Assembly (NCBI RefSeq): GCF_003334355.1
Contig: NZ_QOWP01000041.1
Direction: 5' to 3' (one strand)
Length of the DNA: 28,749 nucleotides
Source: Escherichia coli
GTDB lineage: Bacteria; Pseudomonadota; Gammaproteobacteria; Enterobacterales; Enterobacteriaceae
Shown: piece by piece, positions 2,967 through 3,688 of the stretch
How positions within the stretch are numbered: position 1 is the stretch's first letter
Layout: the number at the start of each line of letters is the position of its first letter
The notes under the pieces: model-generated
What the model was told of the DNA's origin: nothing
Seen by the model: the letters and a program-made list of their open reading frames with translations, nothing else
Database searches by the model: none
Position numbers and translations under genes: made by a program

Positions 2967-3004
2967 TCGGCACCTCCCCCCAAAGTTAAGGTGGGGGAGA
3001 TAGA

Positions 3005-3688
3005 TTAGTTGTACATAACCACGATTTTGACTCGGCTCATTATTTGCCCGCTTGAGACATTGTTTCCATATGTACGCGGGCGAATAAATAGAGGAATCTG
3101 ATTACTTCCTTCATGGGGATGCTGAAAAGAGTAGTAATTGCTTTTACCATACTGGATTTCATTCGTACCATCATTGGAGAGTTGAAAGCCTACTTGACCC
3201 GCACCGTCCTCACTGTTTTCTAACTCATTTTTTAATATGCTGGTTCCTGACTCCTGTATCGTCACTGGTTCAAAGTAATATTCAACATCACTGGGTTCAA
3301 AAACTAATTCACCTTGCTCGCCCTGGATGCAGTCAAATCTTATATGATGAAACTGATAATTTTCATTATTGATACGAGACAGTACAAATCGTCCAGTGTC
3401 GATGGATTGATCTTCAAAACCACAGGTCATTAAATTTACCTGTAAAATAGTATTTAAATTAAAATTAAAGCGGGCGCTATTACAATTAGTATTATTCCCT
3501 GTACATGAACTCACTTCAATTTCGAACAACAAAGGAAAAGGAGTTCCTGGAAAAATATCTGCGGTGTTGGAACTATCTGATACAGATGCGATAGAGTATG
3601 GAATGGTGAAATTTATCGCAGATAGCATTTCTTCTAAATTATAAGATGACTTCCCTGGAAGCGCTATTTTTTTTACCGTCAGATTCAA
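3005..3688 (-). CDS. Fimbrial subunit/adhesin-like protein, C-terminal portion of a probably frameshifted gene
   Basis: The 227-aa ORF ends ...SRVKIVVMYN, a fimbrial-subunit-like C-terminal beta-strand, and sits immediately downstream of an usher remnant. It has a TTG 'start', no signal peptide and no obvious ribosome-binding site; its frame stays open upstream to 3730. AT-rich. Confidence 0.45.
   Translation of the reverse strand: MNLTVKKIALPGKSSYNLEEMLSAINFTIPYSIASVSDSSNTADIFPGTPFPLLFEIEVSSCTGNNTNCNSARFNFNLNTILQVNLMTCGFEDQSIDTGRFVLSRINNENYQFHHIRFDCIQGEQGELVFEPSDVEYYFEPVTIQESGTSILKNELENSEDGAGQVGFQLSNDGTNEIQYGKSNYYSFQHPHEGSNQIPLFIRPRTYGNNVSSGQIMSRVKIVVMYN

Follow-up and report, generated by a model that had tools for sequence, protein, structure and literature searches.

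What is a G/C-rich hairpin doing at the very point where core DNA of Escherichia coli meets an AT-rich island? We have analyzed a stretch of 28,749 nucleotides of E. coli DNA (contig NZ_QOWP01000041.1), which we call the window throughout. In it such a hairpin lies between nhaR and the remnant of a fimbrial gene encoded on the opposite strand. Two questions arise. Does the hairpin belong to the core genome or to the island, and does it act as a terminator, as an RNA element of another kind, as a site in DNA, or not at all?

On the plus strand the spacer between the two genes reads tcggcac-CTCCCCC-caaagttaaggt-GGGGGAG-ataga. The nhaR gene ends with TAA at 2964-2966, and the minus-strand ORF 3005..3688 also ends with TAA, seen on the plus strand as tta at 3005-3007. 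The first-pass annotation, made from the sequence alone, described a 7-bp stem with a 12-nt loop, lying between the convergent stop codons of nhaR (2966) and the fimbrial ORF (3005). The ORFs place the hairpin just there, and the sequence has exactly this geometry; the arms form seven perfect pairs, six of which are G-C. The annotation also stated that neither strand carries a U-tract. The sequence agrees, as does a pattern scan for terminators on both strands of the interval 2500-4000, which returned no terminator-like site. RNA from the minus strand can pair more extensively than that from the plus strand (10 vs 7 pairs), the three extra pairs being two G-U and one A-U. The features of the locus are collected in Table 1.

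Table 1. Features of the nhaR-rpsT interval and its surroundings, in window coordinates
Feature	Position	Strand	Basis or remark
nhaR, LysR-type activator	2067..2966	plus	ORF list and annotation of the identical strain AR_0369
Last nine nhaR codons, part of the variable segment	2940..2966	plus	Alignment and tail translations
Spacer separating the two convergent stop codons	2967..3004		38 nt
Extended 10-pair stem	2971..3002	minus	Only in minus-strand RNA
Left arm, CTCCCCC	2974-2980		Sequence read
Loop, caaagttaaggt	2981-2992		12 nt in the window variant
Right arm, GGGGGAG	2993-2999		Sequence read
Frameshifted adhesin-like terminal gene of a chaperone-usher fimbrial operon	3005..3972	minus	ORFs 3005..3688 and 3724..3972
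Usher remnant without N-terminus	3985..5316 (end approximate)	minus	ORFs, annotation, O157:H7 comparison
espX1 pseudogene, frameshifted type III effector, right-hand part of the island	5563..6983 (about)	minus	ORFs, annotation
Ancestral bidirectional intrinsic terminator, AAAAAAACCCGC-ttgc-GCGGGCTTTTT	7415-7441		Term-seq end, K-12 20763(-)
rpsT, core gene to the right of the island	7466..7729	minus	ORFs, annotation

The order of elements in the window is nhaA, nhaR, hairpin, adhesin-like gene, usher remnant, espX1 and rpsT, and across the junction the window is identical to E. coli strain AR_0369. The fimbrial operon is dead in this strain. Its adhesin-like gene is frameshifted and its usher is truncated, and compared with O157:H7 the operon has lost by deletion its upstream region as well as the genes for chaperone and major subunit. 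O157:H7 has the complete set of major subunit, chaperone, usher and adhesin-like gene together with an intact espX1, and its adhesin-like gene is likewise frameshifted. In strain 95NR1 the adhesin-like gene is intact (L092, 998-1954) and encodes 319 amino acids. On the other side of nhaR, a canonical intrinsic terminator with the sequence GGGAGCC-ataaac-GGCTCCC followed by UUUU lies between nhaA and nhaR (window 2017-2040, stem 2017-2036). This matches a Term-seq 3' end of K-12 at 18696(+), so that much of the nhaA transcription probably ends before nhaR.

We fetched the nhaR loci of 80 species representatives and read their 3' flanks. In ~70 other enterobacterial species the sequence AAAAAAACCCGC-nnnn-GCGGGTTTTTTT is found 10-80 nt past the nhaR stop codon, and is followed by the stop codon of rpsT. 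In Citrobacter, Salmonella, Enterobacter, Klebsiella and most others a single bidirectional terminator is common to nhaR and rpsT. Because the window keeps this ancestral terminator beyond the far end of the island, and the ancestral spacer motif GCAGRCAT at the right end of the island (~7405), the comparison shows that the island inserted immediately past the nhaR stop codon. The insertion parted nhaR from the terminator that it ancestrally had in common with rpsT. We place the junctions of the island at 2967 on the left, with allelic divergence from 2940, and at ~7405 on the right.

Three states of this locus are found in complete E. coli genomes, rpsT being present in 5426 of 5426. About 4206-4215 of the 5426 have the present island, including its IS1-truncated form in K-12. 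A cassette encoding a GH31 hydrolase and an MFS transporter is found in 640 of 5426, and 557 of 5426, LF82 for example, have the empty ancestral site. The ctccccc hairpin is missing from the 557 genomes with an empty site, LF82 among them, and from other genera too. The LF82 spacer is 95 nt long and comprises a small hairpin and the bidirectional terminator, and nhaR in LF82, as in the other empty-site genomes, is the B2 allele, 87% identical to that of the window. The 559 genomes that lack a match to the 3' end of nhaR have a divergent B2 nhaR allele and an empty site. The extra small hairpin of LF82 (L104, 7162-8162) has the sequence TGCAGGCC-gaatttt-GGCCTGCA and precedes the bidirectional terminator.

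The hairpin is also present in K-12. That does not make it core, because K-12 retains the first ~176 bp of the island, up to IS1A, with the hairpin included. The nhaR flank of K-12 had been proposed in the first-pass annotation as the means of deciding between core and island, and taken together with the empty sites it points to the island. By this comparison of sequences the hairpin is shown to be island DNA, not core. Far from being absent from all strains with the island, it is present in essentially all carriers. It begins 7 nt within the island, and G+C falls from ~0.48 to 0.35-0.40 just past position 3000. The placement of the hairpin where core sequence meets AT-rich island sequence therefore holds, and the hairpin is the outermost piece of the island.

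Modules encoding adhesin/fimbrial-like proteins and type III effectors have been described downstream of nhaAR by Lescat et al. 2014 (PMC4182557), together with a B2 nhaR allele that is 13% divergent. Their variable modules flanking nhaAR and the island in the window are the same. That paper makes no mention of the hairpin, of the terminator at the empty site or of the exact junctions.

The variable segment extends a short way into nhaR. The 149 nt upstream of the nhaR tail are 98% identical to the GH31/MFS type, and the identity collapses at ~2940, 27 nt inside the gene. Within the tail, 11 of 27 nt differ (~41%) from the GH31/MFS allele (L003/L004, 9141-9167), and the encoded peptides are SALFSPAAR and SSLFSPASR respectively. 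This is a sharp recombination breakpoint just within nhaR, and evidently one at which the cassettes are exchanged. Next to the nhaR stop codon the GH31/MFS cassette carries a hairpin of its own that is unrelated, CACGCCCCG-ctacata-CGGGGCGTG, followed by AGUUUUAAU on the cassette's own strand. Other insertions past nhaR are seen in Citrobacter youngae, C. werkmanii, C. portucalensis, Klebsiella spallanzanii and Atlantibacter (3' flanks read in loci L018, L020, L022, L026, L041, L042 and L075-L077). Each of these has its own long G/C-rich hairpin near the nhaR stop codon, e.g. CCGGCTGCGG...CCGCAGCCGG and GGAGAGCGGTG...CACCGCTCTCC.

We calculated the stability of the hairpin as RNA of each strand and as DNA. 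The plus-strand RNA folds with -13.7 kcal/mol (z = -1.1), a value equaled by 26 of 200 shuffles of its own sequence and thus not significant in this test. The minus-strand RNA folds with -16.5 kcal/mol (z = -2.1), equaled by 4 of 200 self-shuffles. Folded as DNA, the hairpin has an energy of about -6.6 to -6.9 kcal/mol. Ranked among all 38-nt windows of the 28.7-kb stretch, the plus-strand RNA falls in the top 3.4% and the minus-strand RNA in the top 1.0%. We also counted hairpins of this class, i.e. perfect stems of at least 7 bp with at least 6 G-C pairs and a loop of 3-12 nt. There are six in the window compared with 2.6 +/- 2.4 in shuffles, and ~0.003 would be expected in any given 38-nt spacer. 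The hairpin is real, and beyond chance for its position, yet it is only moderately stable. A weak predicted folding energy, which the first-pass annotation would have counted against the hairpin, was not obtained.

The hairpin resembles canonical intrinsic terminators, such as those at 2017-2036 and 7415-7441, in having a G/C-rich stem that ends a transcription unit. The stem has 7-8 perfect pairs, six of them G-C. The hairpin differs in that the loop measures 12 nt in the window variant and 9 nt in that of K-12, as against the usual 3-8 nt, and in that neither strand has a run of U 3' to the stem, the plus-strand tail being AUAGAUUAGUUG and the minus-strand tail GUGCCGAUUAAC. Bidirectional terminators of convergent genes, of which the ancestral nhaR/rpsT terminator is an example, are similarly single hairpins in a very short spacer between convergent stop codons. 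Those have A-tract/U-tract symmetry, but the hairpin does not; it is flanked by tcggcac and atagatt, compared with the AAAAAAACCCGC...GCGGGCTTTTT of the terminator next to rpsT.

A third class has been described in E. coli. Rho-dependent transcripts end at stable stem-loops without a U-tract that guard against PNPase and RNase II, and a mild enrichment of C over G has been reported for them (PMC6061677). The hairpin is similar to these in several respects. It is a stable stem-loop just past a stop codon, with no U-rich sequence after it and no A-tract upstream, and it folds with an energy within the range seen for terminator hairpins. It differs from them in its longer loop, in the location of the plus-strand enrichment of C over G, which is not immediately downstream, and in having no mapped 3' end. 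The C/G ratio of the plus strand is 0.9 over 0-200 nt downstream and 1.48 over 200-400 nt; that of the minus strand is 1.58 over 50-150 nt, where the background has a median of 1.0 and a 90th percentile of 1.47.

Transcript ends have been mapped in K-12 by Term-seq under three conditions (Adams 2021, PMC7815308 supplement). There are 3' ends at the nhaA terminator, 18696(+), and at the rpsT terminator, 20763(-). Nothing was called between these two, so that neither strand has a called end at the hairpin (K-12 ~19628-19652) under any of the three conditions (PMC7815308). This negative carries little weight, since expression of nhaR is low and the fimbrial operon is missing from K-12. The TERMITe supplements make no mention of nhaR, and papers on IS1 at the nhaR locus contain nothing on the hairpin. 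We also considered a repeat of the REP/BIME type and rejected it. The hairpin is found at one place per genome in ~3900 genomes (median 1, maximum 2), its arm motifs occur once in the window, and a permissive Rfam scan of 2000-8500 gave no match at the hairpin.

We then compared the ends of related fimbrial operons. The 319-aa adhesin-like protein of 95NR1 gave 12 word-indexed matches, and 44 in an exhaustive search (E<=0.001), among 1.84 billion representatives. The family is very small, and fragments from E. coli make up most of the matches. For almost all entries in the word-indexed list, no Pfam domain has been precomputed. We read seven contigs with full-length relatives of the protein, at 29-48% identity. 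None of the seven adjoins nhaR, and in most the neighbor is a convergent rcnB-like gene. All seven have a G/C-rich hairpin 7-44 nt past the stop codon, and in the three closest relatives the 5' arm is all-pyrimidine and the 3' arm all-purine, as on the minus strand of the window. The L093 sequence is CCCCCTC-acgtc-GAGGGGG followed by CUUUUUUU, L094 has CCCCCTC-ttcac-GAGGGGG and L097 has CCTCCCTC-gatat-GAGGGAGG, the last two without a U-tract. In L098 the stem differs, and U6 comes after it. With their tails of U6-U7, L093 and L098 are canonical terminators. The nearest relatives of the operon carry very similar C5/G5 hairpins with U6-U7 tails, whereas the hairpin in the window is tail-less. 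The L093 left arm, together with its 5' flank, can be aligned to the minus strand of the window (TATCTCCCCC--ACCTT vs TATTTCCCCCTCACGTC), and this is suggestive of homology between the hairpins, but not proof. The hairpins of the relatives show analogy more firmly than homology, because nearly every operon ends in a hairpin.

The reading that we favor, though only mildly, takes the hairpin for the stem-loop at the 3' end of the fimbrial (chaperone-usher) operon, brought in with the island between nhaR and rpsT. It would be a terminator of a tail-less type, because the place of the U-tract on the operon strand would be occupied by the stop codon and last codons of nhaR (CCGAUUAACGCG on the minus strand). 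The end hairpin of the imported operon would now fill the 38-nt gap between the convergent stop codons. It would act on RNA, folding at the ends of transcripts and blocking 3'-to-5' exonucleases. Its effect on RNA polymerase would at best be a pause or a weak stop, with Rho effecting release at a point beyond it. The operon is dead in this strain, and whatever use is left would lie with the nhaR (nhaAR) transcript. In favor of this reading are the hairpins of the relatives, the better pairing of the minus-strand RNA and the constancy of the stem described below. Against it stand the missing U-tract, the long loop, the lack of a called 3' end, the C/G ratio of 0.9 just downstream on the plus strand, the absence of compensatory substitutions and one strain in which an IS1 within the left arm is tolerated.

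Natural variants of the hairpin bear on these possibilities. They were counted as exact matches of a 75-76-nt junction segment. The window variant, with C6/G5, a 7-bp stem and a 12-nt loop, is found in 1441 genomes. The variant of K-12 and O157, found in 908 genomes, has one C fewer and an A-T pair that closes the stem, giving C5/G5 plus A-T, 8 bp and a 9-nt loop. A further 473 genomes have a G-to-A change in the right arm. In the plus-strand RNA this creates a C.A mismatch, and the fold of -8.1 kcal/mol is no better than 31% of random 38-nt windows. In the minus-strand RNA it creates a G-U pair, giving 8 contiguous pairs and -11.1 kcal/mol. The change is a single event, and it points to pairing having mattered on the minus strand. 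Among seven hairpin variants there are no compensatory substitutions, and 6 of 8 pairs are invariant. The sole co-variation is a paired C/G indel in a divergent Escherichia lineage (L007), where one additional C and a G to match it generate a 9-bp stem. Comparison of E. albertii (L009) with K-12 gives changes at 0 of 16 stem positions and at 15 of 48 (31%) loop and flank positions (P = 0.007, one-sided Fisher test). The corresponding numbers for L007 are 0 of 16 and 8 of 48 (P = 0.085).

Could the hairpin matter today mainly for nhaR? In that case it would have been kept or co-opted as a 3'-end stabilizer or terminator of the nhaAR or nhaR transcript, and this would explain why it survives while the rest of the island decays. 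Three islands have been reduced independently and all keep the hairpin, with 176 bp left in K-12, a fimbrial remnant of ~135 nt in L007 and ~30 nt in E. albertii. The E. albertii stem is unchanged though 31% of its surroundings differ, and no stable structure other than the hairpin separates the nhaR stop codon from 4.4 kb of antisense island DNA. Such persistence could however be passive, as deletions cannot enter nhaR and the hairpin lies 7 nt from its stop codon. Moreover, the G-to-A change breaks the stem in the plus-strand RNA and not in the minus-strand RNA, and K-12 Term-seq calls no nhaR 3' end at the hairpin. In strain QEC11-421 (L091, about 715-1530) nhaR is parted from the hairpin by an IS1 within the left arm, flanked by an 8-bp target duplication, AGCTCCCC. 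On balance we regard a present role that is mainly for nhaR as unlikely. A capture of the terminator, in which the incoming end hairpin was co-opted as a 3'-end element of nhaR, is selected despite loss of the island and works without a U-tract, is similarly doubtful. If the hairpin does set the stability of nhaR mRNA, strains with the common G-to-A change would provide a natural test allele.

The IS1 in the arm of the QEC11-421 hairpin, and that of K-12 at 176 bp from nhaR, indicate that the AT-rich junction attracts IS elements. In QEC11-421 an IS3-family element also truncates the fimbrial gene, 312 bp beyond the IS1.

Alternatively the hairpin may have no function at all. It would then be an inverted repeat left by a dead operon, or a product of slippage in C/G runs, persisting as a short sequence beside a gene end that it is essential to keep. 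The operon is an array of pseudogenes here and in many other strains, and no 3' end has been mapped at the site. The lengths of the C/G runs vary between C5/G5, C6/G5 and C6/G6, as slippage predicts, and a variant with a weakened stem is common. Of the 200 plus-strand self-shuffles, 26 fold equally well. Against a relic, the number of such hairpins expected in a 38-nt spacer is only ~0.003. Nor would a relic be expected to keep its stem amid diverged surroundings, as in E. albertii, or to gain a C and a G as a pair, as in L007. Lastly, relatives of the operon carry equivalent hairpins, some of which are canonical terminators. We consider it improbable that the hairpin is a functionless relic.

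The remaining possibility, that the hairpin is a site at the DNA level (a cruciform, or a target for a recombinase or integrase) that directed insertion of the island and defines its boundary, is already close to refuted: the hairpin does lie at the very edge of the island, and the spacer between nhaR and rpsT has repeatedly received insertions across genera, with different cassettes in E. coli and elsewhere, but the hairpin is absent from empty sites and so cannot be the target, other cassettes at the same spot bear unrelated hairpins, the left and right junctions have no direct or inverted repeat of at least 8 nt in common, there is no tRNA gene within 10 kb and no integrase or recombinase gene annotated in the island, the DNA fold is worth only about -6.6 to -6.9 kcal/mol, and each arm motif occurs once in the window with one copy of the hairpin per genome. 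An attachment site for the island was rejected on the same grounds, i.e. the lack of junction repeats, tRNA or integrase and the missing hairpin at empty sites. The first-pass annotation took the hairpin to mark the left boundary of the island. It is at that edge, but with no flanking repeats, tRNA or integrase nothing suggests that it creates or defines the boundary.

With the hairpin read as the terminal stem-loop of the fimbrial operon, the locus is a worked example of an acquired cassette that lands between convergent core genes having one bidirectional terminator in common. After the insertion rpsT keeps the terminator, and nhaR would face the operon-end hairpin of the newcomer. Beyond the nhaR-rpsT locus the significance of this is slight, and the hairpin itself is an ordinary one of a known kind.

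Two minor observations were made in the course of the analysis. A 5.5-kb contig (L005) binned as 'uncultured Alistipes sp.' is 98-100% identical to E. coli and contains nhaR, the hairpin and the fimbrial remnant; its placement is probably contamination of the bin. The sole match from the Rfam scan of the window was a sub-threshold one to the rimP-leader at 7384-7480, over the rpsT terminator, with 26.5 bits compared with a gathering threshold of 47 and E = 0.45. This is most likely a chance match, driven by the hairpin of the rpsT terminator.
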